Source: an uncultured Bacteroidales bacterium (GTDB lineage: Bacteria; Bacteroidota; Bacteroidia; Bacteroidales; B18-G4). Taken from it: a DNA stretch of 64,000 bases. Numbering within the stretch: position 1 is the first letter of the stretch; each line of letters begins with the position of its first letter. The DNA is taken from contig CAZHFC010000001.1 of NCBI GenBank assembly GCA_964531985.1, positions 29,572-93,571 of the forward strand, in the 5' to 3' direction. The notes beneath the pieces are model-generated. The model was given only the letters and a program-made list of their open reading frames with translations. It made no database searches and was not told the DNA's origin. Below, in pieces: positions 8,280-46,389 of the stretch. Position numbers and translations under genes: made by a program.

Positions 8280-8304
8280 AGCGATCGTTATGTTTGTTAT
8301 ATTT

Positions 8305-10922: not shown

Positions 10923-10970
10923 AATGCTTCGTTTGTTAATTTTTCACTTGTCGTACGAAAAAAGATTTCA

Positions 10971-12901: not shown

Positions 12902-12937
12902 TGCTGGCCTGCCATGTGGGCTTATGCCATGGCCTTC

Positions 12938-13303: not shown

Positions 13304-13307
13304 GGGA

Positions 13308-15500
<2,193 letters not shown>

Positions 15501-15677
15501 GTTCCTCAAAACTTAAAAATCAATATCTTTGTGAGGCCGTAGTAAAAATTATCAGGAATTAATAACGTTATATTAAATGATTATGTTCTGTGCTTTTCTG
15601 ATCATGCGCAATTTTTATTCCCGCTTTAACAAATATAAGGATAAAAGCTGTTTTTAAAAACAAAAAAAATAAAAAAA

Positions 15678-16649
15678 GTGTTAATAAATTCACAGGATAA
15701 CATCCGGGAAATTGCCTTATCGACCATTGAGAATGAGGCTGCTGCCATCAGTGGCCTGAAAAGGGCCATTAATAAGGATTTCGAAACATGTGTCCGGCGG
15801 ATATTTGCTTCCTCCGGCAGGCTGATCATTACCGGTATCGGAAAAAGTGCCAATATTGCGCAAAAGATCGTCTCTACACTGAACTCGACCGGCACACCGG
15901 CGGTTTTCATGCATGCCGCCGACGCCGTCCATGGCGATCTGGGCATCGTTCGTGACGATGACATCGTGATGTGCCTCTCCAAGAGCGGGGAAACACCGGA
16001 GATCAGGGTGCTCGTGCCACTGCTCAGGGCCCGGCAGAATATTTTGATCGCCATGGCCGGTAACATGGAATCGTATCTGGCTAAACAGGCCGACCTGGTC
16101 CTCGATACCTCGGTTGAAAAGGAGGCCTGCCCGAATAACCTGGCACCTACGGCCAGCACTACCGCGCAACTGGTCATGGGCGATGCGCTGGCCATGGCAC
16201 TGCTCTCCCTCCGGGGCTTCACATCCGAGGATTTTGCCCGCTTCCATCCCGGCGGCTCCCTCGGGAAAAGAATGTACCTGAAAGTGTCGGACCTCTGCGT
16301 TAACAACGAAAAACCCATGGTACATCCCGGCGCCGGGATCAGGGAAGTGATCGTAGAGATCTCTTCCAAAAGGCTTGGGGCGGCCGTGGTGATGGACCAT
16401 GACAAACTGCTGGGCATCATTACCGACGGCGACCTCAGGCGGATGCTGGAACAGGATACCGATATAAATGAACTGAAAGCCATAGATATCATGACCCGAA
16501 ACCCGAAATCCATTGATGAAGATGAACTGGTGGTGAATGCACTGGAGATCATGCGGCAGAATAAGATCACCCAGCTTCCCGTGATAGGGAAAAACACCTA
16601 TGTGGGCGTCATCCATATGCATGATATCATCAGGGAAGGAATCATTTGA
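15678..16649 (+). CDS. kdsD: KpsF/GutQ arabinose-5-phosphate isomerase (SIS domain plus two CBS domains)
   Basis: Motifs TGIGKS, HGDLG, SKSGET, EACPNNLAPTAST, FHPGGSLG and GIITDGDLRR. Confidence 0.92.
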   Translation: MLINSQDNIREIALSTIENEAAAISGLKRAINKDFETCVRRIFASSGRLIITGIGKSANIAQKIVSTLNSTGTPAVFMHAADAVHGDLGIVRDDDIVMCLSKSGETPEIRVLVPLLRARQNILIAMAGNMESYLAKQADLVLDTSVEKEACPNNLAPTASTTAQLVMGDALAMALLSLRGFTSEDFARFHPGGSLGKRMYLKVSDLCVNNEKPMVHPGAGIREVIVEISSKRLGAAVVMDHDKLLGIITDGDLRRMLEQDTDINELKAIDIMTRNPKSIDEDELVVNALEIMRQNKITQLPVIGKNTYVGVIHMHDIIREGII

Positions 16650-16659
16650 AATCCTGATC

Positions 16660-17019
16660 ATGAACAAAAAAGTTGAAGAATACAATGCCTACCGGCAGCA
16701 GATGAACGAGCGGCTGCTGAAAGCCGGAAACAATAAGATCATTAAACGGATCTTTAACCTGGATACAAACACCTATACCGACGGTGCCCTGGATGTACGC
16801 ACCAAGGAACTGCTTGGCCTGGTTGCATCCATGGTGCTTCGTTGCGATGATTGTATCAAATACCACCTTCAGCAGTGCTGCCGGCTTGGGGTGACAAGTG
16901 AGGAGATCATGGAGGTGTTTGGGGTGGCCAACCTGGTAGGCGGCACCATTGTAATCCCCCATACTCGCCGTGCATTGGAATTCTGGGAAGCTTTGCAAGC
17001 CGAAAACAATGGAAAGTAA
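16660..17019 (+). CDS. Carboxymuconolactone decarboxylase/AhpD-family protein
   Basis: GALDVRTKELLGLVASMVLRCDDCIKYH. The start is placed at ATG 16660, after the kdsD stop. Confidence 0.85.
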   Translation: MNKKVEEYNAYRQQMNERLLKAGNNKIIKRIFNLDTNTYTDGALDVRTKELLGLVASMVLRCDDCIKYHLQQCCRLGVTSEEIMEVFGVANLVGGTIVIPHTRRALEFWEALQAENNGK

Positions 17020-17058
17020 AGACCGGACCCGGATCAATTCCGCAATGGAAAGGATTAA

Positions 17059-22695: not shown

Positions 22696-23090
22696 TGTTT
22701 TTCAGACTTTCCGGCATTCCGGTTTTTTTTGAATCCGGCAAAGGCTTCTTCCACGGCATCATCCAGTTTTGTGCACAATGCATCATATGCTTCGAGTAAT
22801 TTCAGTGCGCCCGGTGTGAGACGTGAATAGCCTCCTTCGTGTCCGCCGCGTTTCTTTTCCGTCAGCTCATACCCAAGAAGCGATTCTGCCTTTTTCAGGT
22901 CGCTCCATGCCTTGCGGTAACTGACCCCCTGTTTTGAAGCTGCGGCCGAGAGCGATCCTTTTTCCAGGATCGCCCTCAGCAGGCCGTAGGTTTCTTCAGA
23001 AAGAATGTCTTCGCCGCTTACCGACGACAGCCAGAGTTTATAACTCAACAGTACGTTAAAGCGGCTGTTTTTCCTTTTTGGTGCCATCAT
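22692..23090 (-). CDS. modE: ModE-like winged-helix regulator (DNA-binding domain only, no TOBE/mop domains)
   Basis: LLRAILEKGSLSAAASKQGVSYRKAW...AE..LG..L....GG..GG.S.LT is the ModE N-terminal signature. The protein is 132 aa. Confidence 0.8.
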   Translation of the reverse strand: MMAPKRKNSRFNVLLSYKLWLSSVSGEDILSEETYGLLRAILEKGSLSAAASKQGVSYRKAWSDLKKAESLLGYELTEKKRGGHEGGYSRLTPGALKLLEAYDALCTKLDDAVEEAFAGFKKNRNAGKSEKQ

Positions 23091-23101
23091 TTGCTTTAGT
23101 T

Positions 23102-23125
23102 CATTATGTAAAAATAAACATAACG
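23102..23125. promoter_or_regulatory. ModE-type operator box
   Basis: CATTATGT-aaaaataa-ACATAACG is a 24-bp dyad matching the ModE consensus CGTTATAT-N8-ATATAACG at 13 of 16 positions, 11 bp from the modE-like start. Confidence 0.7.
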
Positions 23126-23202
23126 TTATAGATTACATGCAACAGGCATAAAAAACCATAATGGATTTTATCCGGGGCGATGGTATGCGTGCCCTGCTTA
23201 TG

Positions 23203-23628
23203 TCAGTGGCAGTTTTTCGAATATTGCTTCACTGCCTGGTAAAAATATTTTTGTTTGGCTTCGGTATCGCAATAGGCATCGATCTCTTTGGAGAGTGCCG
23301 TTAATTGCTGATCGAGGCTGACAATGGCCTCTTTGTGCTCTTTCTGGGCCACATCGCTCAGGGCCATTTCTGCAGATTTGTTCAGGTTTTCCATTTTACA
23401 GACCATTTCTGCTTTGCGCTCGGCGTAGCCGTTGATCTTCTGCACGTCTTCGTATGAAAGTCCCGTTCTTTCGCTCTGGTTTTGCATGCGCTCCTGGTAT
23501 TCTTCGTATTGCTGGGTGTTTGGCGTTGCCGTAAGCTGGCGGTTTTCGGTGGTCGTTTCGCGGGTTGATGAACAGGAAGCAAGTATTAAAAGGCCGAGGG
23601 CCGGCAGGAGAAATGACAGGGTTTTCAT
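23203..23628 (-). CDS. Hypothetical helical lipoprotein
   Basis: Lipobox LASC, with its own TATCTTTG -7 element at 23657-23664 on the minus strand. Confidence 0.7.
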   Translation of the reverse strand: MKTLSFLLPALGLLILASCSSTRETTTENRQLTATPNTQQYEEYQERMQNQSERTGLSYEDVQKINGYAERKAEMVCKMENLNKSAEMALSDVAQKEHKEAIVSLDQQLTALSKEIDAYCDTEAKQKYFYQAVKQYSKNCH

Positions 23629-23803
23629 TATATCTCGTTTAGTGTGATGGTTGCTGCAAAGATAATAAACTCCATGAACAATCTATACATGATAAATGTT
23701 AGTTGGGGGCGACAATGACAGGCAGGCCTGAAGCGGTCATGCCGGCATGATAAAAGCATAATCTGTTTCTCTCAGATTATTTTTTGGTTTTGTTTGATTC
23801 GAG

Positions 23804-23827
23804 AAAGGGCCGGGATTCCGGCCCTTT
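23804..23827 (-). terminator. Intrinsic terminator after aor
   Basis: Hairpin aaagggccgg-gatt-ccggcccttt immediately after the aor stop codon. Confidence 0.75.
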
Positions 23828-23832
23828 TTTCA

Positions 23833-25989
23833 TTACTCCTGGTGTGGTTTAACCACCTCGATCAGTTCCGGCAGGTCCATGCCCAGTTCCTTGAGATGGG
23901 AGATTTTCGGTACACCGTTTTTGGTCCATCCGCGACGCAGGTACACGGCATCGAGGAGTTTCTCATAGCGGTCTTCGCGGTATTTCCTGAGAAGGGCTTT
24001 CTTCTCGGCGGTTGTTTTTCCTGCCGGATCGATGCCAATCGTTTCCTTAAGCTGTTTGTCGTAGCGTTCTGCTCTGGATTCGTATTCTTCGTCGGTAACG
24101 GGTCCGGCTGCACGAAAAGGCTGGGCATCGAATTTCCTGATTCCATAGCCCCGTCTGAGGTTGAAGATGCGCTGGAAATTGTATACCCTTTCCGACTGCC
24201 TGATCAGCTCTTCCTTGCCGAAGGGTTTTCCCGTTACGGCGCTGTAAATGGTTACGTAGTTATCGACGTGTTCGGGTACCTTGGCCGGCTCATCGGTTTC
24301 GGCATTGTTTTCGGGTTCAACGTCGTTCCAGGGCAATTTGCACAGGCCCACCAGCCCGAACCATGTACGGAACATGGGGAAGTAGTGCAGGGCTTCGGCC
24401 TTGTCCTCGAAAGTGGGGATCTGGTTGTTTACCATATCCATGAAGATAAGCCACGCTTCGTCATGCTGTGGTCCCTTGTTGGTCATGGCAAAACCACCCT
24501 GCTGGGCCAGTGATTCTTTGGATACGTATTCGGAGTATTCCAGTCCCTTGTTTTCCATGCCGATATCCTGCAGGAAAGCGGGGTCGCCCCAGCCCTTTTC
24601 AATGAACAGTGCTTTCATCCGGCGAACGCCCAGGCCGGCCACCAGTCCAAAGCCTTCGCCCCGGGCAAGCTGGTGTATCAGTTCCATGGCTGCATCGGCA
24701 TTGCCGAAGTTCAGTTTCAGTCCGCCTGTACGTTCTTCGTTGAGGATGCCGTTTTCGTAGCATTCCATAATAAAGGCCATCAGCGTTCCCCAGGTAATGG
24801 TACAAATGCCGTAGGTGTCGCAATAAAAGTTTGCTTCTATCACATAGTCGGGGTTGAAGATGCCGCAATTGGAGCCCAGTCCGCCGGCATTTTCATATTC
24901 CGGACCATCTACGATCACTTTCTGGCCGGCATAGGGGCCGGTCCTGACAAGGTATTCATCTACGCCCTTGGAGCAGGACATGTTGCAGCCGATCCAGCAA
25001 CCATCCGGGATGCCCTGTGTAAAGCGCGATTTCCACACTTCTGAGTGTATGCCGTCGGCTTCGGGATGGCTTCCGAACTTAAAATTATGCACAGGCAACA
25101 GGTCATAGTCGTTCATGATGTTCACCAGGTGGGCCGTCCCTTTGGACCTCATCTCTGCCTGGCTGTCGTCAAGCTCCCGCATTTCCCTGTTAAAGCGTTT
25201 ACCGCGCTCCATGATCGCGTCGAGGTCGGCTACGTCGTTAAGGTTGCCTTTAACGCCCGGTATCCTGCAAACCAGGGCTTTGATCTTTTTATTGCGGAAC
25301 ACCGTTCCGATACCGCCACGGCCTGCTTGTTTCAGCCTCACTTTTTTCCTTTTCGGATCGTAAAAACTGAAATTCAGCATGCCGATGAGTGAATGGCCGG
25401 CGGCAGCGCCGGTCGATACTACGGCTATGTTTTTTCTGTCTTTTTCGTCTTCGGCAAACATTTCGGTAAGCACTTCGGCCAGCTCATGGCTGTCGATGGG
25501 TTCGAGCGGCGCTTCAAAGATCTCCACGCGGTGATTCACGCCGTCGATAAAGATCATAATGTCGTTCTCAGCCTTACCCTGCAGTTCAATGGCGTCGAAG
25601 CCCGAAAACTTGAGGAAGGGGCCGAAAAACCCACCCACATTGCTGTCGATCGGGATGTTTGTCTGAGGGGAGATGGAAACACAGATCGATTTCCCTGTTC
25701 CCGAATATTGTGTGATACCACCGATAGGGCCGGAAGAGATGTTGATCTCGTTTTCGGGATCATCCCATTTGGTTTCGGGCGTTGTAGCGTCCCATAACAG
25801 CCGCAACCCGTATCCCTTGCCCCCGATGAACTTCTCCTTCATCAGCGGTGGCACTGTTTTTTCTCTTATCTCATTGCCGGATACGTTGATGTAAAGTATC
25901 TTGTCGGTGTAACCCCGGTGCAATGGCGTCCATTCATACTTCCATTCCTTCAGGGTTTTGTGGGCGTTCTTCATTTCTGTAATATCCAT
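23833..25989 (-). CDS. aor: Aldehyde:ferredoxin oxidoreductase family (tungstopterin, 4Fe-4S) enzyme
   Basis: Motifs KFIGGKG, SPQT...DSNVGG, QAGRGGIG, CWIGCNMSC plus distal GLCK, GPEYE, CDTYG and ERVYNFQRIFN. The start is placed at ATG 25989 (the ORF track starts at 25998). Confidence 0.9.
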   Translation of the reverse strand: MDITEMKNAHKTLKEWKYEWTPLHRGYTDKILYINVSGNEIREKTVPPLMKEKFIGGKGYGLRLLWDATTPETKWDDPENEINISSGPIGGITQYSGTGKSICVSISPQTNIPIDSNVGGFFGPFLKFSGFDAIELQGKAENDIMIFIDGVNHRVEIFEAPLEPIDSHELAEVLTEMFAEDEKDRKNIAVVSTGAAAGHSLIGMLNFSFYDPKRKKVRLKQAGRGGIGTVFRNKKIKALVCRIPGVKGNLNDVADLDAIMERGKRFNREMRELDDSQAEMRSKGTAHLVNIMNDYDLLPVHNFKFGSHPEADGIHSEVWKSRFTQGIPDGCWIGCNMSCSKGVDEYLVRTGPYAGQKVIVDGPEYENAGGLGSNCGIFNPDYVIEANFYCDTYGICTITWGTLMAFIMECYENGILNEERTGGLKLNFGNADAAMELIHQLARGEGFGLVAGLGVRRMKALFIEKGWGDPAFLQDIGMENKGLEYSEYVSKESLAQQGGFAMTNKGPQHDEAWLIFMDMVNNQIPTFEDKAEALHYFPMFRTWFGLVGLCKLPWNDVEPENNAETDEPAKVPEHVDNYVTIYSAVTGKPFGKEELIRQSERVYNFQRIFNLRRGYGIRKFDAQPFRAAGPVTDEEYESRAERYDKQLKETIGIDPAGKTTAEKKALLRKYREDRYEKLLDAVYLRRGWTKNGVPKISHLKELGMDLPELIEVVKPHQE

Positions 25990-33148: not shown

Positions 33149-34642
33149 TTAGCGGCCCGGATTCGGGCTTCCGACCCTTGACATTGCACAGCGGAAGCCG
33201 ATATAGTTGGTAGCCACATTCTGGTTCATGAACCTTCTTTGCCCGGGGCTCAGGAAATAAGCAGGATCTCTCCATGAACCGCCCTTGTATACGCGTGCTT
33301 CGTCGCTGATGAGCGAAGTGACCCCGTATTCATACATGGCATTGGTCTGGTTCGACTGTGTAGGTTCCGACAGCCAGTCGTTGCTCTCGGAGAGTTGCGA
33401 CATCTGATCGCCGTCGAAGTAGTTCCTGTTGTCGGCTTTGCGGTAGTTTTGCCTTCCAACCAATTCCTCTTCGGTTACTTCTTCATAGCGGATGCGGCCC
33501 AGGCTGTCTTTGTCGACCAGGAAGCCGTCCTGGTCCCTGACGGCATTTTCAAAGATATTTCCCCTGTATGGGTTGAAGTCGGAGAAGTCTTCGAGCGAGA
33601 GAGGCCTGTACACGTCGAGCACCCATTCGCTGACGTTCCCGCCCATGTTATAGAGTCCGTAATCATTGGGCCAGTATGAGCCGATGGGTGCGGGAATGTC
33701 GGCACCGTCATTCAGTGTTCCGGCAACGCCCATATAGTCGCCCCTGCCTCTTTTAAAGTTGGCCACGAAACTGCCGTAATAGCGTTTTTCGTCGGTACGG
33801 GTGTAGTTGCCGTTCCAGGGATAACGCCTTCTTTCAACCACCCTTTCGTATAGTGTGTTCCCGATCAGCCCGAGTGCGGCATATTCCCATTCTGCCTCAG
33901 TGGGCAGGCGGTAGCGCGGAAGGATCAGGCCGTCCTTGATACTGGCGTTGCGTTCGCCGGTAGAGTTGGGGTTGAGGTTCCTGAGGGGTTTGTTGACAAG
34001 CCCTTCATACTGGCCGGCCAGGTATGCTTCGGTGTTGAAGTTGTTCTCGTTTTTCTGGTCGGGGTCAAGGTCGAGGATGCCTTCGTTGATCAGCATCCAT
34101 TCGTTTACCCTGTCGGTACGCCATGAGCAATAGTCGTTGGCCTGTACCCAGGTCACACCCACCACCGGATAGTTGTGGTACGCGGGATGGCGGAGATAGG
34201 TTTCCACCAGGGGTTCGTTGTACGACAGCCTGTCGCGCCATACCAGGGTATCGGGCAGGGCATTTACATGAACCTGCGGATAGTCGGTGCCGAAAACCCT
34301 CTTCAGCCAGTAAAGGTATTCAAGGTAATCGAGGTTGCTCACTTCCGTTTCGTCCATATAAAATGACGATATGGTTACCCTGCGCGGAAAGTTGTCCCAG
34401 TCGAACATCAGGTCTTCCTGTGTCGATCCCATCACAAATGTCCCGCCTTCGATCAGGATAAGCCCGGGCCCGGTGACCTGTTCCCGCAACTGGGACACTT
34501 CAAATCCACCGTTTTCGGGGTTGTTGTATTCCCAGTTTGTCGTTCGTGAATATTCCTTTTTTCTGAAAAGGCTGCATGACGACAGTGATGCGATGAAAAC
34601 AATCGTTAGGAATAACAGGGCTAATTTGCTGTGTTTCATCAT
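33149..34642 (-). CDS. gldJ: Gliding motility lipoprotein GldJ (FGE-sulfatase fold)
   Basis: Lipobox LSSC, motifs FYMDETEVSN, ALPDTLVWR, YLRHPAY.NYPVVGV, RLPTEAEWEYAA and IGFRCAM, and a position between porP/porU and murF. Confidence 0.8.
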   Translation of the reverse strand: MMKHSKLALLFLTIVFIASLSSCSLFRKKEYSRTTNWEYNNPENGGFEVSQLREQVTGPGLILIEGGTFVMGSTQEDLMFDWDNFPRRVTISSFYMDETEVSNLDYLEYLYWLKRVFGTDYPQVHVNALPDTLVWRDRLSYNEPLVETYLRHPAYHNYPVVGVTWVQANDYCSWRTDRVNEWMLINEGILDLDPDQKNENNFNTEAYLAGQYEGLVNKPLRNLNPNSTGERNASIKDGLILPRYRLPTEAEWEYAALGLIGNTLYERVVERRRYPWNGNYTRTDEKRYYGSFVANFKRGRGDYMGVAGTLNDGADIPAPIGSYWPNDYGLYNMGGNVSEWVLDVYRPLSLEDFSDFNPYRGNIFENAVRDQDGFLVDKDSLGRIRYEEVTEEELVGRQNYRKADNRNYFDGDQMSQLSESNDWLSEPTQSNQTNAMYEYGVTSLISDEARVYKGGSWRDPAYFLSPGQRRFMNQNVATNYIGFRCAMSRVGSPNPGR

Positions 34643-34679: not shown

Positions 34680-35702
34680 CTAAAATCGCGGGCAATTTAT
34701 TGCCCTGATGCGTCTTCTTTTTTGGTCGAGGCAATTAAATTGCCATCCCAGCGACACCTCATGTGCCCCGCCGGTTGTGTTTTTAAGTTGTGAAAGGGTG
34801 ATATCGTAGCTGTAGCCTACTTTTAGGCCCCTCCATTCAAGTCCGATCATGGGTACGATGGCATCGGCATTTTCGAAGTTATGCCTGAACCAGGCACCGG
34901 CCACGAAGGGCCTTTTATTTACATATATGCCAACATTCAGTTGGTGGAACATCCCTTGCTGCATATACATGAAGTTGGGGGAGATGGCGAAGCTGCCGTA
35001 GTTTTCGTCTTCCACCACACTGCCGGTCAGGTCGAAGAACAAGCCCCCGTGGGCGGTGATCCTCATGCTGAGATTGCTGGCACTGGCGTCGTAGAAACCA
35101 TTGGCGGGTTCGGTCAGATGATGAACGGCCACGCCCCCGTAAATATTGCCTTTATGGGAGAATGCGATGCCCGCGGCAAAATCGGGATAAGCAATGCCGG
35201 TATTGTCGGGAGGGACTTCGGAGGTGGGGTTTACCACGCCCAGGCCGGGATCGATCATGTCACCGAAAACCAGGTTTTCCCACCTCAGTTTGGTAAGTAT
35301 GTAACTGGCTTGAAGGCCAAAGTTGATATATGTCCAGTTTCCGACCTGCAGGCGGAAGGAGTACATGGCGCTGATGATATTGGTTGTAAGCAGTTCCCCG
35401 GCATTATCCCCGACAAAATAGACGCCTACCCCACCCGAGATCTTTGGAATATGCATGTCGAAGGATGCACTGTAAGTAACAAAGTTGTCGGGCAGCGAGG
35501 GCCACTGGTTGCGGTAACTCAGATCGATGCGCGGGCATACGTTCGACCCGGCCAGGGCGGGGTTGAGGTATAGATGACTGGCATAGAACTGTGAAAAATG
35601 CGGATCAGGCACAGACTGGCCCCTTGAAGCCAATGCCATGCCAAGAAAAGCAAGCACCGTTAATGTCTGAATCGTTCTTGTCATCCTAATAAGGATCGTC
35701 AA
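34680..35702 (-). CDS. porP: PorP/SprF-family T9SS outer-membrane barrel
   Basis: Motifs DPHFSQFY..LYLNPALAG, YRNQWP and GYSYDITLS...GAHEVSL. The start may be ATG 35684. Confidence 0.85.
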   Translation of the reverse strand: MTILIRMTRTIQTLTVLAFLGMALASRGQSVPDPHFSQFYASHLYLNPALAGSNVCPRIDLSYRNQWPSLPDNFVTYSASFDMHIPKISGGVGVYFVGDNAGELLTTNIISAMYSFRLQVGNWTYINFGLQASYILTKLRWENLVFGDMIDPGLGVVNPTSEVPPDNTGIAYPDFAAGIAFSHKGNIYGGVAVHHLTEPANGFYDASASNLSMRITAHGGLFFDLTGSVVEDENYGSFAISPNFMYMQQGMFHQLNVGIYVNKRPFVAGAWFRHNFENADAIVPMIGLEWRGLKVGYSYDITLSQLKNTTGGAHEVSLGWQFNCLDQKRRRIRAINCPRF

Positions 35703-35898
35703 TATACTAAAATAAGCCTACAATATTACAAATCATTTTGAAATATACCATACAAATATTTCGTGGGTAATTATAATTTTGCAATATTAGTAAAAGTACA
35801 ACGTTTAAAATTACAATTCAAATATACTGAATTTTATTATTTATAATGGAATATTTCTGTTTCACCCCCGTCTTTTGCCGGGCCTTATAATAATACCC

Positions 35899-38800
35899 AT
35901 GATCAAAAGGTTTTCATTCTGCCTTCTTTTTTTGATAATTTTTCGGCCTTTTTTCTCTTTTGCCGATTCGGGTCCACTGAAGAAGGAGCTCCGATGGTCG
36001 GATGTGAGCAGGTTCAGCATCAGCGATGACAGGCAGATGTATTTTCTGTCATTTGAAGGATGTGTTTATGAGGAAGCAACGGCCGATCTGCCGGTATACC
36101 GGGATCGATTTGCGATTGGCGGCATGAATTCGCGCGTTGAAGCAGTGTTGACTGAGCAGCTTTGGGAGGATCTGCCTTCAGACGAAATTGAAAGGATTGC
36201 CGGCTACGGCCTGATCGGCCCCGCACCCCGGATCGTTACTGACATTGCCATTGAACGAAAGGAACCATACGCCACCGTATCTTTCGTTCCGCTTCGCAGG
36301 GATCCCGCAAGCGGCCGCTATCAAAAACTCCTGTCGTTTACCCTGAACATAAAGGTAACGCCGGTTGGGGCACCCTCCACGGCTGCAGGCAGGACCTACA
36401 GGCAGAATTCCGTGCTTGCCACCGGTAACTGGTATAAAATGGCCGTTAAGTTTTCGGGCATACATAAGATCACATACAATGACCTGATTGCCCTTGGCAT
36501 GAACCCGGCCGGTATCGACCCCGGGAATATCCGTATCTATGGAAACGGCGGCGGCATGCTGCCCGAGCCTTGCGGCGCTTTCCGCTATGATGACCTGATG
36601 GAGAATGCCATCTTTGTTTCCGGCCAGGGCGATGGCAGTTTCGATACCCAGGATTACATCCTCTTCTACGGTGAATCGCCTCACGTGTGGGAGTGGGATG
36701 AAGGAAGACAGGCTTTTGTCCATACCAGCAACATCTATTCCGATTACAATTATTATTTTATCACGGCCGACCTTGGCACGGGAAAACGTATCCAGGGCCA
36801 GGCATCCGTCACCCTGCCTTTAACGCATCTGGTAAACAGCTTTACCGACAGGAAATTTATTGAAAAGGACGACCTGAACATTGTGAAGACCGGCCGCGAC
36901 TGGTTCGAATCTCCTCCTTACGAAGTACAGTTGAGCAATGATTATGACTTCAGCTTTCCCGATATCGTTCCCGGGAGCAATGTCGGGATGCGCAGCCGGG
37001 TGGCTGCCCGTTCTTCCATGGGCAGCAATTTTAAATATTACCTGAATGGCACGCAGCTCATTGAAACGCTGCCGGTGTCGGCCGTCTCTTTTTCATCCGA
37101 TCAATATGCCCATACCGCTGGTATCGAAAGTACGTTCGAAGTGGGAAGCCCGAATGTCAGGATCAAGGTAACATACAGCAAACCTGCTTCAGCATCGGTT
37201 GGCTGGATGGATTATATCGCCCTGAACGCCCGCCGCTACCTGAGGTTCACAGGTGGTCAGATGGCTTTCAGGGATCCGCAGTCCGGCGGCCCCGGGAATG
37301 TGGCCGAATATGAATTGTCGAATGCTTCCGCTTCTGTGGAGGTGTGGAATGTGAGTGATCCCATGAATGTGGCCCGCGTCGGGACAAGCCTTGACGGATC
37401 CCTGATGCGTTTCAGGATTCCGGCCGACAGCATTGAAGAGTTCGTGGCTTTCGACGGCACTTCCTTTTATGGGGTTGCAGCCGCAGGCAAGGTGGATAAC
37501 CAGAACCTGCACGCCATCACCATGCCCGATATGGTCATCGTTTCATACCCCTCATTTCTCAGCGAGGCCAACCGCCTGGCAAACCACCACCGGAATTTCG
37601 ACGGCATGGAGGTATTTGTTACGACTCCTCAGAAGATCTATAATGAGTTTTCCTCGGGAGCCCAGGATGTGACCGCCATCAGGGATTTTATAAAGATGCT
37701 GTACGACAAGGCCTCTCCGGGTAGTGAATGTCGCTACCTGCTGCTTTTCGGCGATGCTTCGTATGATTATAAGGACAGGGTGAGCGACAATACGAATTTT
37801 GTTCCCACCTGGCAGGACAAAAGGTCGATGAACATCATCACTTCCATTGCAACGGATGATTATTTCGGTTTTCTCGACGACAACGAAGGGGGATCGGGAA
37901 CCAACCAGCTTCTCGATCTGGGTATCGGACGGCTGGTAGCGTCAACCCCCGAGTCGGCCAGGCAGATGGTCGACAAGGTCATCCATTATGCCACCGCCAC
38001 CCCCGATGTATTCGGAAACTGGCGTAATGTGGTATGTTTCGTGGCCGATGATGAAGATGCAAACGTGCACATGCAGCAACATGCAGAAAAACTTGCCACA
38101 CGCCTCGACACCACCTATGGATACCTGAACGTGGACAAGATCTACCTGGATGCCTATGAACAGATCAGCACTTCGGGCGGGCAGCGCGCACCACAGGTAA
38201 ACCAGGCCATCAACAACAGGATGGAGAAGGGCAGCCTCATCATGAATTATACAGGGCATGGCGGGGAAGTTGGATGGGCCCATGAAAGGATACTGGAACT
38301 CAAGGATATTAACAGCTGGACCAATTACAACAAATTACCGGTTTTCATCACGGCCACCTGTGAATTCAGCCGCTATGACGACCCCACGCGTACATCGGCC
38401 GGGGAACTGGTGCTGCTCAACCCCGATGGCGGCGCGATCGCGCTCTTTACCACGGCCAGGGCCACCTATGGCTCACCCAATTTCCAGCTTAACAATGCCA
38501 TGTTCGACAATATGTTCGAAAAAGTGGACGGTGAATATCCGCGTTTCGGCGACCTGATCCGCTACGCGAAAAACAAGAGCGGGAACTCCACCGACAATGA
38601 CAAGAAATTCGTCCTGCTCGGGAACCCTGCCCTCAGGCTGGCTTATCCGGAACACCGTGTCCGGACCATACAGATCAACAATGTGAATGTTTCCCCTTTG
38701 AACGACACCCTCAGGGCCCTTCAAAAGGTAAGTGTCAGCGGCATTATCCTCGATGAGGCCGGGAACAAACTAAACAGCTATAACGGAACGCTCAGGCCGG

Positions 38801-39732
38801 TGGTTTATGACAAACCCACACAGATAGAAACACTCGTTACCGACCCCGCCAGCAAACCATTCACCTTCGGGCTCCGCATGGCGATCCTTTATAACGGAAA
38901 GGCCAGCATTACCAACGGCGAATTCTCCTTCACCTTCATCGTACCCAAAGACATCATCTATAAATACGGCTACGGCAAGATCAGCTATTATCTGAACAAC
39001 AACGACAGTGACGGAACCGGATATTACGGGAATGTCATTATCGGGGGATTCGACAGCAATGTGCCCCCCGACGATGAAGGGCCTGAGATAGACCTCTATA
39101 TGAACGACGAGAACTTTGCATTTGGCGGTATTACCGACGAAAACCCGGTATTGCTGGCCTTTGTTACCGACTCAAGCGGGATCAATACCGTGGGATCAGG
39201 CATCGGGCATGATATCGTGGCCACACTCGACAACGACAACAACAAATCGGTGATCATCAATGAATACTACGAGTCGGATATCGACAGCTATACCAGCGGC
39301 ACCATCCGCTATCCCCTCGCAGGCCTGTCTGAGGGCCCCCATTCCATGAAGCTGAAGGTTTGGGATGTGCATAACAATTCAAGTGAATCCTATACGGAAT
39401 TCGTGGTGGCATCGTCGGCGGAACTCGCCATTGATCATGTGCTGAACTATCCAAACCCGTTTACCACAAGTACGGCTTTTTATTTTGATCATAACCAGCC
39501 CAATACGATGCTTGAAGTACAGGTACAGGTATTTTCCGTGTCGGGCCGTTTGATCAAAACCATCGATCAGTTTGTTATAAGCAATGGTTACCGTTCAGAA
39601 CCCATTTACTGGGATGGCCGTGACGATTTTGGCGATCGCATCGGCCGGGGGGTCTATATATATAAGGTAAGGGTCCGCAACCAGGATGGCTCCTTTGCCG
39701 AAAAGCTGGAAAAACTGGTCATCCTGCGATAG
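35899..39732 (+). CDS. porU: T9SS sortase PorU (gingipain-like C25 peptidase), copy 1
   Basis: Motifs SVLATGNWYK, IYNEFSSG, YLLLFGDASYDYK, NYTGHGGE (catalytic His) and ITATCEFSRYD (catalytic Cys), and a CTD NYPNPF...WDGRD..G...GVYIY. The start is placed at ATG 35899. Confidence 0.92.
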   Translation: MIKRFSFCLLFLIIFRPFFSFADSGPLKKELRWSDVSRFSISDDRQMYFLSFEGCVYEEATADLPVYRDRFAIGGMNSRVEAVLTEQLWEDLPSDEIERIAGYGLIGPAPRIVTDIAIERKEPYATVSFVPLRRDPASGRYQKLLSFTLNIKVTPVGAPSTAAGRTYRQNSVLATGNWYKMAVKFSGIHKITYNDLIALGMNPAGIDPGNIRIYGNGGGMLPEPCGAFRYDDLMENAIFVSGQGDGSFDTQDYILFYGESPHVWEWDEGRQAFVHTSNIYSDYNYYFITADLGTGKRIQGQASVTLPLTHLVNSFTDRKFIEKDDLNIVKTGRDWFESPPYEVQLSNDYDFSFPDIVPGSNVGMRSRVAARSSMGSNFKYYLNGTQLIETLPVSAVSFSSDQYAHTAGIESTFEVGSPNVRIKVTYSKPASASVGWMDYIALNARRYLRFTGGQMAFRDPQSGGPGNVAEYELSNASASVEVWNVSDPMNVARVGTSLDGSLMRFRIPADSIEEFVAFDGTSFYGVAAAGKVDNQNLHAITMPDMVIVSYPSFLSEANRLANHHRNFDGMEVFVTTPQKIYNEFSSGAQDVTAIRDFIKMLYDKASPGSECRYLLLFGDASYDYKDRVSDNTNFVPTWQDKRSMNIITSIATDDYFGFLDDNEGGSGTNQLLDLGIGRLVASTPESARQMVDKVIHYATATPDVFGNWRNVVCFVADDEDANVHMQQHAEKLATRLDTTYGYLNVDKIYLDAYEQISTSGGQRAPQVNQAINNRMEKGSLIMNYTGHGGEVGWAHERILELKDINSWTNYNKLPVFITATCEFSRYDDPTRTSAGELVLLNPDGGAIALFTTARATYGSPNFQLNNAMFDNMFEKVDGEYPRFGDLIRYAKNKSGNSTDNDKKFVLLGNPALRLAYPEHRVRTIQINNVNVSPLNDTLRALQKVSVSGIILDEAGNKLNSYNGTLRPVVYDKPTQIETLVTDPASKPFTFGLRMAILYNGKASITNGEFSFTFIVPKDIIYKYGYGKISYYLNNNDSDGTGYYGNVIIGGFDSNVPPDDEGPEIDLYMNDENFAFGGITDENPVLLAFVTDSSGINTVGSGIGHDIVATLDNDNNKSVIINEYYESDIDSYTSGTIRYPLAGLSEGPHSMKLKVWDVHNNSSESYTEFVVASSAELAIDHVLNYPNPFTTSTAFYFDHNQPNTMLEVQVQVFSVSGRLIKTIDQFVISNGYRSEPIYWDGRDDFGDRIGRGVYIYKVRVRNQDGSFAEKLEKLVILR

Positions 39733-39813
39733 ATCGGGGCACAATCCGATAATTGGATGATGCGGGCAACCACAGCAGGGAAATCATTGTCTTGATTAAA
39801 ACAGTTTATAATA

Positions 39814-42800
39814 ATGAAAAGAAATACCATCCTCCTGTTATTATTATTTTTCTCTTCTCTTTTATCGCATGCCCAGAAGCATACGGCGGAGGTGTACCCG
39901 GGTCAGTATATCATTGAAGAACGATACCTTACCAGCGAAATATCTGAAATATTCCTTGATTTTGACCAGGCAAAGCTGGATGATGCCTATGGCATGCTCC
40001 CGGTGTATATCAGCCGTATCCCCCTTAAGTCTTCAGAGAACAGCATTATTGCCGGTTTCACGGATGTTTCCTGGCATGTATTGCATGATGAGCGCCTGCC
40101 TTTTGTGTCGGGCATAGAACAGGTGGGAAATGAATTCGGACTCGAAACTTCGGTCATGTTCATCGACGGTGAGCCCTATGCTGAATTGCTGATTGTCCCG
40201 TTCCGCAATGCTGGCGGCGCTTCCGTTGAAGTGATTGACAGTTGCCGGGTTTCAATTGAGATCACAGAGACCGCGGCAGCGCCGGTCAGCATAAAAAACA
40301 ATTTCGTATCGAATTCCGTGCTGGCTACAGGAGACTGGTATCGCCTGGCTACCGGCGAAACCGGAATATACCGGATCTCATACGACGACCTGCTGGAAAT
40401 GGGCATACAGCCATCTTCCATCGATCCGCGTACCATCAGGATCTTCGGGAACGGAAACGGTATCATTCCCGAAAAAAATTCCGATCCCCGGTTCGATGAC
40501 CTTCTCGAAAATCCCATCCTGGTTTTTGGAGAAGATGACGGTTCATTCGACCAGGGTGATTATATCCTTTTCTACGGACAGTCGGCCGTGTGCTGGAAAT
40601 ATGTTCCCTTTGTGGGGTACGGGATTTTCAGCCATACCATCAACCCTTATACCGACCATACCTTTTATTTCCTTAATTTCAACCAGGAGGAGGGAATGAG
40701 AATACCAGTGGCCGACCATTCGGGACTGATCCCTACTTCCTACGTGAATGAATTCAGCGATTATGCCGTTCATGAAAATGATGCGGTGAACATCCTGAAA
40801 ACCGGCAGGGAATGGTATGGCGAGCTCTTCCGCGACCAAACGGTATACGAGTATAGCTTTCACTTTCCGAATATCGTGCAGGATTATCCCGTAAGCCTCA
40901 TGAGCAACATGGCGGCACACTCCACCGTCGAGAGCAATTTTGACTTTTATTATGGTGATCAGCACCTGATGAAGGTCCCCATTACCCGGATTTTGCCAGG
41001 TACAACTATTTATGCCTGGACCGCTACTCCCGATACCGTTGGTTTTTATCCCGCCCAGGGCGATGAGGTGACCATCAGGGTGGAATATGACAAGCCTGCT
41101 TCCATATCGCAGGGATGGATGAATTATGTATCGCTCAATGCAAGACGGAAACTGATCTTTACCGGTCCCTTCATGTCGTTTCGCGACCACCTCCATGTCG
41201 GCCCTGCCGCCGTTTCCGAATATAAGGTTTCGGCTGCCGGCGAAGGTTTGTCCGTCTGGGATGTCACCGACCCTTTCTCCATTGTCCGGCTGCAGGGAAG
41301 CTTTTCGAACGATAACTTCATCTTCAGGTCGCCGGCAGATGAGATCAGGGAGTTCATCGCCTTTGACGGCAGTGGGTTCAACAAAGCGGAATTCGTCGAA
41401 AAGGTGGAAAACCAGGACCTCCATGCTTATGACCCTGCCACCTACATTATCCTGACCCATCCCGATTTCATGCAACAGGCACAGCGTATGCTGAGCCTGC
41501 GCCAGCAACTGGACGGCATGAGCGGTTTCATTGTAACCCCCGGGGAAATATATAATGAATTCAGTTCGGGGAAACAGGATCCGGCCGCCATTAGGGATTT
41601 TATAAGAATGCTTTACGAGAAGGCCGATTCTGCCAACAGACCGCGTTACCTCCTGCTGCTTGGCGATGCATCATATGACTATAAAGACAGGCTGCCGAAC
41701 AATACCAATTTAGTGCCGACTTACCAGTCGCAGGAAGCCCTTAAACTCGGCTATTCCTTTGTTACCGATGACTTTTTCGGATTGCTCGACGAAGGAGAAG
41801 GGATCAATGCCTTCGGAAAATCAGTTGAGATCGGCATCGGGCGTTTCCCTGTCCATACGGATGAGCAGGCTTCGCAGATGGTCGACAAGATCGAGGCCTA
41901 CATGACCATGAAGCCATATGTGCTGGATGAATGGCGAAACTATATCAGCTTCATTGCCGATGATGAGGATCAGAACCTGCATTTCAACCAGGCTGAGAAG
42001 TTGCAGCACATGATCGATACCGGTTACCGTTCCTACAACCGCCTGAAGATATACATGGATGCCTTTCCGCAGGAGTCGAGCCCGTCGGGAAGCCGGTATC
42101 CCGGGGTGACCGAAGCCATAAACGATCTGATGGAGAGCGGAAGCCTGGTGATCAACTATACGGGTCACGGTGGCGAAGCGGGCTGGGCCCACGAAGGCGT
42201 GCTCGACATTCCCACCATCAATTCCTGGGATAATCACGACCGCCTGCCGCTTTTTATCACGGCTACCTGTGAGTTCAGCCGTTTCGACGATCCCGGCCTC
42301 ATCTCCGCCGGCGAATATGTGTTTCTGAACCCCAATGGCGGAGGTATCGGCTTGCTTACCACCTCCAGGCTGGCCTGGGCCGATCCGAATTTCAGGCTGA
42401 ACCGGGCCGTATACCAGTTTATGTTCAAAAAGCCCGGGGGTGAACATTACCGCCTGGGCGACATTGTGAGGCTGGCCAAAACAGATCAGAACAACGGAAC
42501 CAATATCAAGAATTTCGTCCTGCTGGGCGACCCCGCCCTGAAACTGGCATACCCCGAATGCTATGTCGAGACGACCTCCATCAATGGCAAGCAAACGGGC
42601 TTTATGCCCGATACACTCACCGGCATGGCGCAGGTCAGCGTCAGCGGCATCATCAAGGATGTGTACGGCGACACCCTTCGCAACTTTAACGGCCTGCTGT
42701 TCCCTTCGGTCTTTGACAAGGAAGTGATGATGTCGACCCTTGGAAATGACCTGGGTTCCATGCCTGCACAATTCTATGTGATGGGCGAAAAACTATACAG

Positions 42801-43647
42801 GGGTAAGGTGACCGTGGTGAACGGTGAATTCAGTTTCGACCTGTTCATGCCGCAAAGCACCCTCACGAATTACGGTTTTGGAAAGATCAGCTATTATGCC
42901 TACGATACCGTGAACTACCGTGATGCCCACGGATACCGGAAAGTCACCGTGGGCGGCGCGAATCCCGATGCCCCTGCAGATGTAACAGGGCCCGACATGA
43001 ACCTGTATATGAACAATACGGACTTTGTGTCAGGAGGGCTTACCGGCAGGGATCCGGTCTTCCTGGCCTACCTCTTTGATGAGCATGGCGTTAACGCAAG
43101 GGGAAGCGCAATCGGTCGCGATATTACCCTTACCCTGAACGGAGATGCGGAAACCATGGTGGTACTGAACGATGTTTTTGAACCCGAAATCGACTCATAC
43201 CAGGCCGGATGGATCAGCTACCCCCTTACAGACCTGCCCGACGGAAAGCATTACCTTAGCCTGAAAGCCTGGGATAATATGAACAACCCTTCGGAAAAGA
43301 CCATCGAATTTGAGGTTAGCGTCGACAGGCCGGTTGCGCTCACCGGGGTGATAAATTATCCCAACCCCTTTACCGAGATTACCTATTTTGTTTTTGACCA
43401 TAATAAGCCTGAAAACAGCTTTAAGGTTGAATTGCACATTTTCAATATTCATGGTCAACTGGTAAGGGTGCTTACTGCAAATACTCCGGCGCAGGGGCTT
43501 TCGGTTGCCCCCCTGGCATGGGACGGCACCGACCAGGGTGGAAACAGGCTGGGGCATGGAATGTATGTTTACAGGCTGCACGTGACCGATGAACAGGGAA
43601 CGGTTTTCGTCCAGACATCAAAGCTGATCTATACAGGCCGTAAATAA
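39814..43647 (+). CDS. porU: T9SS sortase PorU, copy 2 (diverged tandem paralog)
   Basis: The same motif series in the same order: SVLATGDWYR, IYNEFSSG, YLLLLGDASYDYK, NYTGHGGE, ITATCEFSRFD and NYPNPF...WDGTD. Confidence 0.9.
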   Translation: MKRNTILLLLLFFSSLLSHAQKHTAEVYPGQYIIEERYLTSEISEIFLDFDQAKLDDAYGMLPVYISRIPLKSSENSIIAGFTDVSWHVLHDERLPFVSGIEQVGNEFGLETSVMFIDGEPYAELLIVPFRNAGGASVEVIDSCRVSIEITETAAAPVSIKNNFVSNSVLATGDWYRLATGETGIYRISYDDLLEMGIQPSSIDPRTIRIFGNGNGIIPEKNSDPRFDDLLENPILVFGEDDGSFDQGDYILFYGQSAVCWKYVPFVGYGIFSHTINPYTDHTFYFLNFNQEEGMRIPVADHSGLIPTSYVNEFSDYAVHENDAVNILKTGREWYGELFRDQTVYEYSFHFPNIVQDYPVSLMSNMAAHSTVESNFDFYYGDQHLMKVPITRILPGTTIYAWTATPDTVGFYPAQGDEVTIRVEYDKPASISQGWMNYVSLNARRKLIFTGPFMSFRDHLHVGPAAVSEYKVSAAGEGLSVWDVTDPFSIVRLQGSFSNDNFIFRSPADEIREFIAFDGSGFNKAEFVEKVENQDLHAYDPATYIILTHPDFMQQAQRMLSLRQQLDGMSGFIVTPGEIYNEFSSGKQDPAAIRDFIRMLYEKADSANRPRYLLLLGDASYDYKDRLPNNTNLVPTYQSQEALKLGYSFVTDDFFGLLDEGEGINAFGKSVEIGIGRFPVHTDEQASQMVDKIEAYMTMKPYVLDEWRNYISFIADDEDQNLHFNQAEKLQHMIDTGYRSYNRLKIYMDAFPQESSPSGSRYPGVTEAINDLMESGSLVINYTGHGGEAGWAHEGVLDIPTINSWDNHDRLPLFITATCEFSRFDDPGLISAGEYVFLNPNGGGIGLLTTSRLAWADPNFRLNRAVYQFMFKKPGGEHYRLGDIVRLAKTDQNNGTNIKNFVLLGDPALKLAYPECYVETTSINGKQTGFMPDTLTGMAQVSVSGIIKDVYGDTLRNFNGLLFPSVFDKEVMMSTLGNDLGSMPAQFYVMGEKLYRGKVTVVNGEFSFDLFMPQSTLTNYGFGKISYYAYDTVNYRDAHGYRKVTVGGANPDAPADVTGPDMNLYMNNTDFVSGGLTGRDPVFLAYLFDEHGVNARGSAIGRDITLTLNGDAETMVVLNDVFEPEIDSYQAGWISYPLTDLPDGKHYLSLKAWDNMNNPSEKTIEFEVSVDRPVALTGVINYPNPFTEITYFVFDHNKPENSFKVELHIFNIHGQLVRVLTANTPAQGLSVAPLAWDGTDQGGNRLGHGMYVYRLHVTDEQGTVFVQTSKLIYTGRK

Positions 43648-43884
43648 TTTAAACCCTGTACAACATATTCATTTGTTTTTTGTTATAAGAGCCAAAGAAA
43701 TGTTATCAAATTGAATATCAACCATGGCGTGCAATATAAGTTTACAAATAATCGTTACATTTGCACGTTTTTTAAAAGCATACCCTATTAATATGAAACC
43801 ATCTGCTATCAGCACAGGAATATACATCATTGATGATATGTGCAGCATGGAGGTTCCGTCATACAACTAAAATACGATTTCCAT

Positions 43885-45099
43885 ATGATCAAACGAAGCA
43901 GTCTTTTTTTGGTGTTAATTTTTGCGGGGATGATCTCTTCGAAAGCACAGGATGTTACATACGACCAGGTTGGTGAGAAAGACCAGTTAAATACCATTAC
44001 TACGGCGGTGCCCTTCCTGATGATCGCTCCCGATGCCAGGAGTGGTGCGCTGGGCGATGCCGGCGTTGCCTCCACGCCGGATGCCAACTCCATGCACTGG
44101 AACCCTGCCAAATATGCCTTTATCGACAAGCAGATGGGCTTTTCACTGTCGTTCAGCCCCTGGCTGCGTAAACTGGTTAACGATATTTATCTCGGTTATC
44201 TCACCGGTTATTATAAGATCGACGACATGCAAACGGTGGCCTTCGGCCTCAGGTATTTTTCGCTTGGTGAAATCCTTTTTACCGATGAAATTGGCAACCC
44301 GCTGAATTATTATTCACCTTACGAGTTTTCACTCGATGGTACCTATGCCAGGAAGTTTTCCGAGAAGTGGTCGGGCGGCGTGGCGGCCAGGTTCATATAT
44401 TCAAACCTTACCCAGGGCCAGTATGTGGGCGGGGCCGAATCCAGTGCCGGCGTTTCCGTTGCAGCCGACGTTTCAGTCTATTACCAGAACGAGATTGAGA
44501 TGGGAACCCTCGACGGCCTCTTCGCATGGGGCCTGAACATCTCCAATATTGGCACCAAGATCTCCTATAACGAAACCAATATCAAAAAGGACTTTATCCC
44601 CACCAATTTCAGGATCGGGCCCTCGTTAAGCCTGGATATTGATGATTATAACTCCATGACTTTCATGCTCGACTTCAACAAACTGCTGGTGCCGACACCA
44701 CCCATTTATGAGCGTGATTCATTCGGGCAGTTTGTAACTACACCTGATGGCGAAAAAGTGATCCTGAAAGGCAGGGATCCCGAAGTGTCGGTGGTGCAGG
44801 GAATGATTCAGTCGTGGTACGATGCCCCGGGCGGTTTTTCTGAAGAAATGAGGGAATGGAGTTTCGGCGGGGGTGTTGAATACTGGTATAACAAGCTCTT
44901 TGCCATCAGGGGCGGATTTTTCTACGAAGACAAGACCAAGGGCAACCGTAAGTTCTTTACCCTGGGTGCCGGTTTGAGGTATAATGTTTTTTCGATTGAT
45001 TTCTCCTATCTCATCCCGCTGGAACAGCAAAACCCGCTGGAAAACACCCTTCGGTTTACCCTTCTTTTCGATTTTGACGCATTTAAGAACCAGGATTAA
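43885..45099 (+). CDS. porV: T9SS shuttle protein PorV
   Basis: Motifs ITTAVPFLMIAPDARSGALGD, WNPAKYAF, KGNRKFFTLG and NPLENTLRFTL, in porU-porV-ispF synteny. The start is placed at ATG 43885. Confidence 0.92.
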   Translation: MIKRSSLFLVLIFAGMISSKAQDVTYDQVGEKDQLNTITTAVPFLMIAPDARSGALGDAGVASTPDANSMHWNPAKYAFIDKQMGFSLSFSPWLRKLVNDIYLGYLTGYYKIDDMQTVAFGLRYFSLGEILFTDEIGNPLNYYSPYEFSLDGTYARKFSEKWSGGVAARFIYSNLTQGQYVGGAESSAGVSVAADVSVYYQNEIEMGTLDGLFAWGLNISNIGTKISYNETNIKKDFIPTNFRIGPSLSLDIDDYNSMTFMLDFNKLLVPTPPIYERDSFGQFVTTPDGEKVILKGRDPEVSVVQGMIQSWYDAPGGFSEEMREWSFGGGVEYWYNKLFAIRGGFFYEDKTKGNRKFFTLGAGLRYNVFSIDFSYLIPLEQQNPLENTLRFTLLFDFDAFKNQD

Positions 45100-45102: not shown

Positions 45103-45588
45103 ATGGATTGGCGGATCGGCCACGGATATGACCTGCACAGGCTGGTGCCCGGCAGGCCTTTGTGGCTGGGCGGGGTGCTGATCCCTTACCCCCTTGGGCT
45201 GGAAGGCCACTCCGATGCCGACGTGCTTCTCCATGCCATTTGTGATGCCCTGCTCGGGGCAATCGCCCTGGGCGATATCGGCAGGCATTTCCCGGATACG
45301 GACAAGCAATACAAAAATATTGACAGCAAGCTGCTGCTCGAAAAGGTTGCCGCCATGATTCACGAACGGGGCTGGGCCATTCAAAACCTTGATGCCACGC
45401 TGGTGCTTGAGGCTCCGAAAGTAGCTTCTTATATTGAGGAGATGCGGAAACTGCTCGCCGCCATTCTCAAGACCGAAACGGGCAGGGTTTCGGTAAAGGC
45501 TACCACCACCGAAGGGCTGGGGCCCGAAGGCCGTGGGGAGTGCATCTCGGCCCACGCCCTGGTGCTGATCGCCAGGGAGGACGGCTGA
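45103..45588 (+). CDS. ispF: 2-C-methyl-D-erythritol 2,4-cyclodiphosphate synthase
   Basis: Motifs RIGHGYDLH, GHSDADVLLHAICDALLGA, DIGRHFPD and VKATTTEGLG. Confidence 0.97.
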   Translation: MDWRIGHGYDLHRLVPGRPLWLGGVLIPYPLGLEGHSDADVLLHAICDALLGAIALGDIGRHFPDTDKQYKNIDSKLLLEKVAAMIHERGWAIQNLDATLVLEAPKVASYIEEMRKLLAAILKTETGRVSVKATTTEGLGPEGRGECISAHALVLIAREDG

Positions 45589-45633: not shown

Positions 45634-46389
45634 ATGACCATGGACTACCGCGATTATCTATACCTGCTTGAGTTCCTGCTGCTGCTGGCAATATTCATAT
45701 ACCTTCTTCGCTTCATCTTCTTCAATTACGGTGGCAGGATACGGAAACCCGCATCATGGGTTGCCGCGGTGAAGGAAGGCAGGGTGCCGGAAGCCTTGAA
45801 GAGGCTGGAGCGAAAATACCCCGACCGCATCCGGTTTTACAACCTGTGGCTGCAGGCAGAACGGCTCAGGCGTGAAGGCATTGGCGGATGCATGGCCGAA
45901 GTGGGCGTATATAAAGGCCGGACAGCGGAAGTCATGCATCATTGCGCACCTGAAAGGCCCCTCCACCTTTTCGATACTTTTGAAGGTTTTCCTGTTTCCG
46001 ACCTGGAAGATGAAACAGGACGGGCTTCGGGATATACCACCCGGCACTTTGCCGGCACTTCTCCCGACAGGGTCAGGGCCATGCTCGGCAATCCCCCCGG
46101 GCTTACCATCCATAAAGGTTATTTCCCGGATACAGCAGCGGCGTTGGAAAATGAAAGTTTTGCAATGGTCAGCCTCGATGCCGACCTCGCCCGCCCGACC
46201 AGGGCCGCCCTGGAGTTTTTTTACCCGAGGCTTGCGCCCGGCGGTGTGATCCTTGTCCATGACTATAACAGCGACTGGCCCGGACTGGTCACAGCCGTCG
46301 ACAACTTTTGCCGGGGTATTCCGGAAAATCCGCTAGCCGTTCCCGATGCCGACAGCACGGTGATGATCGTGAAATCCAAAAAACATTAG
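45634..46389 (+). CDS. TylF/MycF-family O-methyltransferase with an N-terminal TM anchor
   Basis: Motifs AEVGVYKG, FDTFEGFP, KGYFPDT, LDADL and L.PGGVILVHDY. Confidence 0.85.
   Translation: MTMDYRDYLYLLEFLLLLAIFIYLLRFIFFNYGGRIRKPASWVAAVKEGRVPEALKRLERKYPDRIRFYNLWLQAERLRREGIGGCMAEVGVYKGRTAEVMHHCAPERPLHLFDTFEGFPVSDLEDETGRASGYTTRHFAGTSPDRVRAMLGNPPGLTIHKGYFPDTAAALENESFAMVSLDADLARPTRAALEFFYPRLAPGGVILVHDYNSDWPGLVTAVDNFCRGIPENPLAVPDADSTVMIVKSKKH

Follow-up and report, generated by a model that had tools for sequence, protein, structure and literature searches.

The closest described relative of the locus considered here is the attachment step of the T9SS (type IX secretion system) in Porphyromonas gingivalis, where, according to excerpts of PMC10202324, PorU cleaves the C-terminal domain (CTD) of cargo proteins and transfers the cargo to anionic lipopolysaccharide delivered by PorZ. 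The stretch of DNA analysed (the window: 64,000 nucleotides, positions 29,572 to 93,571 of contig CAZHFC010000001.1 in assembly GCA_964531985.1, from an uncultured Bacteroidales bacterium) encodes two PorUs in tandem, porU-A and porU-B, whose products are called A and B below. Both resemble P. gingivalis PorU (6ZA2) in a C25 domain with a Cys/His dyad, a type-A CTD that is presumably retained, and linkage to porV, and share its architecture from about residue 170 onward. However, P. gingivalis has one short-form PorU, whereas the present locus has two paralogues that are 44% identical, each with an extra N-terminal domain (N-domain) of ~150 aa.

Other described systems are alike in part. PorU2/PorV2 (NF052324 and NF052325, catalogued as a putative second T9SS sorting module) likewise provide a second PorU-like peptidase in T9SS bacteria, but A and B are below the PorU2 cut-off and porU-B adjoins porV, not porV2. 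RgpB and Kgp, as gingipain zymogens, have the same C25 catalytic fold, and their prodomain has the fold that is predicted for the B N-domain; they are, however, cargo proteases with a mature domain of ~435 aa, and their sequence match is weak (E 2e-6). To our knowledge, mechanistic work on the T9SS attachment step all comes from single-PorU organisms, and full-text literature searches turned up no report of naturally occurring paralogous PorU pairs. The “two PorU” of PMC11285876 are two engineered mutants and the duplication in a Chryseobacterium preprint is a laboratory mutation. A precedent for adjacent paralogue pairs among T9SS components is found in GldN/GldO and GldK/GldJ of Flavobacterium johnsoniae, described in sections of PMC9127263 and PMC10202324 as adjacent and partly redundant; these are, however, ring components and not a sortase.

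We hold with moderate confidence that the locus carries two working PorU genes derived from one ancient duplication, with A in a housekeeping role and B as a non-redundant specialist that shares PorV, PorQ and PorZ with it. By analogy, A and B are assumed to follow the mechanism of P. gingivalis PorU.

Anatomy of the two PorUs

Both genes lie on the + strand: porU-A at 35899..39732 (1277 aa from the ATG at 35899, within an open reading frame (ORF) that is open from 35875) and porU-B at 39814..43647 (1277 aa). Each product matched NF033707 (T9SS sortase PorU; cut-off 420 bits) end to end: A scored 1397.2 bits (model positions 1-1095) and B 1262.6 bits (1-1094). Peptidase_C25 (PF01364) was found at 368 bits in A and 361 bits in B, with the C25 domain at aa 545-914 and aa 544-911 respectively. 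A type-A CTD (TIGR04183, cut-off 23 bits) was located at aa 1184-1277 of A (24.6 bits) and aa 1182-1277 of B (24.4 bits), and scored 29.3 bits in each in the genome search. Thus two claims of an earlier reading of the window made from the sequence alone (the sequence-only reading), namely that both copies have a CTD and that both keep the motifs NYTGHGGE and ITATCEF, were borne out, the motifs being found in each copy. The catalytic residues are His787 (codon 38257-38259) and Cys821 (38359-38361) in A, and His785 (42166-42168) and Cys819 (42268-42270) in B, all on the + strand; they align with HGG and ATCDF of 6ZA2, which matched copy A over aa 170-1284 of the ORF from 35875 (phmmer, E 3.6e-142). 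Judged by eye only, both N-termini resemble typical signal peptidase I signals, covering aa 1-22 in A (MIKRFSFCLLFLIIFRPFFSFA, followed by DSG) and aa 1-20 in B (MKRNTILLLLLFFSSLLSHA, followed by QKH).

The PorU2 model NF052324 (cut-off 450 bits) was reached by neither A (155 bits) nor B (177.6 bits), and the gingipain domains 1CVR and 4IEF_B matched weakly (E 2e-6 to 6e-6 over ~200 aa). Judged by these profiles and motifs, A and B are full-length PorUs, neither PorU2 nor gingipain-type cargo proteases. Between A and B, identity was 44% over 1234 aa with 16 gapped positions (BLASTP). As they share only this much, an assembly duplicate is ruled out and so is a recent copy, in agreement with the strong divergence already claimed for it.

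Relative to P. gingivalis PorU, both copies carry ~150 extra N-terminal residues, the N-domain spanning about aa 23-160 of A and aa 21 to about 155 of B. The model for the long form of PorU (NF052318, cut-off 40 bits) was passed by A (52.1 bits) and failed by B (18.7 bits). A thus belongs to both the NF033707 and NF052318 families, whereas B passes NF033707 only, despite a homologous N-domain: N-domain profiles of A (34 sequences) and B (24 sequences) aligned with hhalign at 100% (E 1.6e-48). An AlphaFold2 model of the B N-domain (39874-40338; predicted local distance difference test score 85) was similar to the RgpB/Kgp prodomains 4IEF and 5MUN (Foldseek E 7e-6 to 4e-5, template-modelling score ~0.57), and apart from gingipain prodomains the Foldseek search with this model returned nothing at E 0.001 or better. 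As modelled, the B N-domain has a gingipain-prodomain-like fold, and the A N-domain is homologous to it; this suggests that both enzymes may be made as prodomain-inhibited zymogens.

Distribution, descent and constraint of the pair

The source genome (3.28 Mb in 72 contigs, 95% complete) contained just two PorU matches above cut-off, porU-A and porU-B. Two or more PorU matches were present in all 22 of the 22 genomes sampled from the same family; in 19 genomes they were adjacent on a single contig, and in the other three they lay on different short contigs. For the order as a whole, 201 genomes were sampled evenly, each at least 90% complete: 187 of them had PorU and 49 listed two or more matches, some of which represent one gene split by contig ends, while adjacent full-length pairs were found in at least 24 of the 201 (150 of the 242 matches being listed). 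In the sampled pairs, porU-B always lay between porU-A and porV. Outside the order, two full-length PorUs were found in none of the 105 PorU-positive genomes searched in a phylum-level sample, and the two double matches there were single genes in two pieces. Six single-copy relatives showed the order porU-porV-ispF, and tblastn (E 1e-5) revealed no remnant of B in any of the six. One of them (G194, L192) has a porU-porV gap of ~1.25 kb, compared with ~50-160 bp in the five other single-copy relatives; by tblastn this gap had no similarity to B.

Trees were built from every visible tandem pair, mostly high-scoring single-copy genes and outgroups, all chosen from the match lists, and five partial ORFs of less than 1100 aa were left out. 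In the FastTree phylogeny (148 rows), the downstream copies from 14 families grouped in a single 35-row clade (SH-like support 99), and the upstream partners, together with some single-copy PorUs, formed a separate 56-row clade (support 97). With IQ-TREE under LG+G4 (60 rows), the B clade comprised 17 rows (SH-aLRT 99) and was joined by a fifteenth family. To guard against attraction between the faster downstream copies, the site-heterogeneous LG+C20 model (PMSF, 42 rows by 556 columns) was also used: support was 97 for the branch splitting A from B, 87 for the B clade and 89 for A and B as sisters. In this tree most single-copy PorUs branched outside the A and B clades, and G194 nested within the A clade. 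Thus the check proposed in the sequence-only reading, whether copy 2 forms a conserved clade, came out positive, and the grouping of the downstream copies from 14-15 Bacteroidales families into a single clade, seen in three trees, points to one ancient tandem duplication.

The two copies have also travelled together: when 33 genomes were compared in pairs, the identities between their A copies tracked those between their B copies (r = 0.96; Mantel test, reached in 0 of 999 permutations). Within one genome, A and B were 42.6% identical, compared with 41.3% between different genomes, and since the copies within a genome are no more alike than those between genomes, there is no sign of gene conversion. 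These sequence comparisons are therefore best read as a single tandem duplication in a common ancestor of the families, after which both copies were inherited together and no gene conversion took place. Younger, independent duplications were also seen in the trees, in tandem in G117 and in G072/G196 and non-adjacent in G023, G031 and G091. The second tandem PorU of G024 (L082, family f3) is highly divergent (873 bits, FastTree end branch 1.81) and its placement is unreliable.

Both copies are under constraint. All 35 B-clade sequences and all 33 A-partner sequences have the catalytic His and Cys unchanged. The ratio of nonsynonymous to synonymous substitution rates (dN/dS, NG86) was 0.092, 0.079 and 0.151 for copy A and 0.102, 0.154, 0.107 and 0.166 for copy B in unsaturated pairs, five of the eight genome pairs being saturated (dS undefined) and excluded. 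For copy 2, whose dN/dS the sequence-only reading had asked about, values of 0.10-0.17 thus indicate purifying selection and not neutral drift. On the other hand, of 528 genome pairs, 99.6% showed higher conservation of A than of B (mean identity 49.9% versus 44.0%), and single-copy PorUs were nearer to A than to B. In 16 paired genomes, 222 columns were identical-conserved in both copies, 33 in A only and 11 in B only, with the gap largest after the peptidase domain. Together with the invariant dyad, these counts therefore describe B as constrained, catalytically intact and somewhat relaxed.

Locus, attachment partners and cargo

The placement of the pair at the gldJ / porU-porV-ispF locus, as first read from the sequence, was supported by profile matches of the neighbours. 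The - strand side carries anmK, murF, gldJ (33149..34642; a divergently oriented T9SS/gliding lipoprotein gene, TIGR03524 GldJ 499 bits, cut-off 458) and a gene for a porP/sprF-family T9SS outer-membrane protein (34680..35702; TIGR03519 219.5 bits, cut-off 90.6). On the + strand side, porU-A and porU-B are followed by porV (43840..45099; NF033710 502 bits, cut-off 250) and ispF (45103..45588; TIGR00151 210 bits), which ends the conserved porU-porV-ispF block; beyond ispF come genes for a TylF-like methyltransferase, TamL and a RecD-like helicase. The TylF-like O-methyltransferase gene (45634-46389, +), between ispF and tamL, is present in the closest relative (L042), and no match above 50% identity to it was found in the congeners L047, L051 and L052. 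In the same three congeners the recD-like gene is inverted, as is tamL where the locus extends that far (L047, L051).

The ORF list, the spacer and the terminator scan agree with the earlier description of two ORFs of ~1277 aa lying 81 bp apart without an obvious terminator. The spacer (39733..39813, +; 81 bp) holds no terminator-like site placed by the scan and no match to TAnnTTTG, the Bacteroidetes -7 promoter motif. A pattern search placed one such motif, TAATTTTG, at 35774..35781 (+), 118 bp before the porU-A start, and a -7-like motif, TACATTTG, at 43756..43763 (+), inside the 192-bp gap before porV; this motif evidence is weak, because TAnnTTTG has 47 matches in the whole window versus 35 expected. 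From this layout we infer that porU-A and porU-B are co-transcribed.

Genome profile searches found one PorV, one PorQ (contig C24, 345 bits) and one PorZ (contig C19, 616 bits) above cut-offs, and with each of them single, a second attachment complex was rejected. An orphan PorV2 gene lies elsewhere in the window (8948-10012, +; NF052325 501 bits, cut-off 325), between a metallophosphoesterase-like gene (6254-7906) and deoC (10083-10922); the ~1 kb upstream of it (7907-8947) lacks ORFs of at least 150 aa, and no PorU2 (NF052324) was above cut-off anywhere in the genome. A link between porU-B and this PorV2 was considered and rejected: among the B-clade carriers in the order sample, PorV2 occurs only in the family of the window (f1). 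A third barrel of the PorV/PorQ family (362 aa, NF033709 155 bits, below the PorV and PorQ cut-offs) is encoded on contig C26 (~22689-25979; L174, L180), immediately downstream of an ORF of 1399 aa with a weakly PorZ-like C-terminus (41 bits); by sequence, these genes may be a further PorZ/PorQ-like pair.

The cargo load is very heavy for a genome of 3.28 Mb: 148 type-A (TIGR04183) and 12 type-B (TIGR04131) CTD matches were counted, and a hidden Markov model that we built from the cargo CTDs of the window found 161 ORFs, of which 160 matched at the C-terminus. In two phylogenetically matched contrasts between B carriers and single-copy genomes, CTD candidates numbered 156 and 390 versus 71 in one and 354 versus 214 in the other, contrasts that are confounded with genome size, as the B carriers also have larger genomes; scoring stopped at 150. 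The window itself encodes a T9SS cargo of 1490 aa with 12 DUF4397 repeats and a type-A CTD (1452-5924, -), and an AhpC/TSA-thioredoxin-like protein with a T9SS type-A CTD (10971-11762, +), which probably acts as a thiol-disulfide oxidoreductase in secreted form or at the cell surface. Elsewhere in the genome, contigs C9, C14 and C37 (L003-L008, L186-L191) contain arrays of ~1000-1400-aa ORFs with weak C25/PorU-like matches (40-70 bits); several of these ORFs carry a type-A CTD, and the arrays presumably encode gingipain-like cargo peptidases. Contig C2 (~5009-18564) holds four consecutive ORFs of ~1200 aa, each ending in a type-B CTD (TIGR04131, 62-67 bits).

Roles of A and B

Under the explanation that we favour, one transcript starting upstream of porU-A would make both PorUs; A and B would be exported by Sec and then by the T9SS, would start as prodomain-inhibited zymogens, and would keep their own CTDs and dock on the single PorV. 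A would keep the ancestral housekeeping role, since it lies closest to the single-copy PorUs and is better conserved than B in nearly all genome pairs. B would be the faster-evolving, non-redundant specialist, working with the same PorV, PorQ and PorZ, and would most likely take part of the large-cargo job, that is, either some of the cargo proteins or a single outcome, for example release as opposed to anchoring. We thus infer a division of labour between A and B, for which the sequence-only reading had proposed different classes of cargo, different acceptors, roles in release versus anchoring, or a heteromeric complex. That reading had named tandem pairs that are common and redundant in this lineage as the finding that would speak against it: common they are, as the family and order counts show, but the reason lies in the age and retention of the pair, and this weighs against simple redundancy. 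Retention in 14-15 families at a dN/dS of ~0.1 likewise argues against plain redundancy. Tentatively, the division might go further, with B as a dedicated second sortase that splits the functions of a single PorU (anchoring versus release), or with an A-B heterodimer in which each partner gates the activity of the other; we regard this as possible rather than probable.

Several observations weigh against a housekeeping A and a specialist B. In the search for clade-diagnostic residues a single column passed (thresholds 0.85 for A plus single-copy genes and 0.80 for B), and the spread of discriminating columns equalled that of a control split; judged by these alignments, there is no sequence signature pointing to a particular new function for B. 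The genome holds no second PorV, PorQ or PorZ above cut-off for B to work with. Nor were two classes of CTD seen among the 161 CTDs (average-linkage clustering, k = 2-8, silhouettes 0.025-0.058), in a crude analysis of a single genome. B is not needed for a large cargo load, because the single-PorU relative G211 has at least 150 CTD matches. Finally, porU-B has at least two frame changes in G004 (L075/L051) and at least five in G013 (L074/L052), while porU-A is intact in both. These two genomes are congeners and long-read metagenome-assembled genomes with megabase contigs, and since that of G013 also has one frame change in porV, consensus errors are possible; the broken B copies could be real decay or assembly error. 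With these frameshifts, and with the single-copy G194 inside the A clade, B appears dispensable in some lineages.

The near absence of clade-diagnostic residues and of CTD subclasses would fit a pair of isoenzymes of the same specificity, kept for throughput because CTD cargoes are unusually many. The 148 type-A CTD matches in a 3.28-Mb genome, and the 136 to at least 150 matches in the B carriers G152, G090 and G099 compared with 56 in the nested single-copy G194, point the same way. However, duplicates kept for dosage rarely persist at 42% identity over 14-15 families with both copies at a dN/dS of ~0.1; the constraint is asymmetric (33 A-only versus 11 B-only columns), the single-copy G211 carries a comparable cargo load, and the cargo comparison consists of two contrasts only, confounded with genome size. 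We therefore consider a pure dosage effect rather unlikely. Less likely still is an A-B heterodimer in the attachment complex with, for example, reciprocal blocking of the active sites. The idea comes from the latency described for the P. gingivalis PorU homodimer, in which, according to the relevant part of PMC10202324, PorU is inhibited on dimerisation by the beta-hairpin of its partner, and it would suit two genes that are adjacent, probably co-transcribed and strictly co-inherited, in a genome that encodes two PorUs and a single PorV, PorQ and PorZ. On the other hand, the catalytic dyad is complete in both copies, so that neither is a mere regulatory subunit, and B seems to decay or vanish alone in some lineages, which is hard to reconcile with an obligate heteromer.

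It is very improbable that B has left the sortase function altogether and acts on other substrates as a secreted or surface C25 peptidase of PorU architecture. Its cargo-type CTD and gingipain-like prodomain, its faster evolution than A in nearly all of the 528 genome pairs and its loss of conservation at 33 positions kept in A would all suit such an enzyme; yet B covers the whole PorU equivalog model at 1263 bits, shares 222 identical columns with A, including the whole active-site motifs, and is always found between porU-A and porV. The explanation with a housekeeping A and a specialist B is thus the one that we retain.

The profile models scanned do not set the B clade apart from ordinary PorU. 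Public annotation would consequently call both copies simply PorU, merging two distinct lineages under one name. How PorU picks effectors for release versus attachment remains to be unravelled, in the words of a section of a 2023 review (PMC10202324). The pair, kept intact, adjacent and under purifying selection in many uncultured Bacteroidales families whose genomes encode some 150 CTD cargoes or more, provides a natural experiment for the question of release versus attachment. If B is indeed a dedicated second sortase or the partner of A in a heterodimer, the two-sortase system of these 14-15 families would offer a direct handle on the choice between attached and released cargo.

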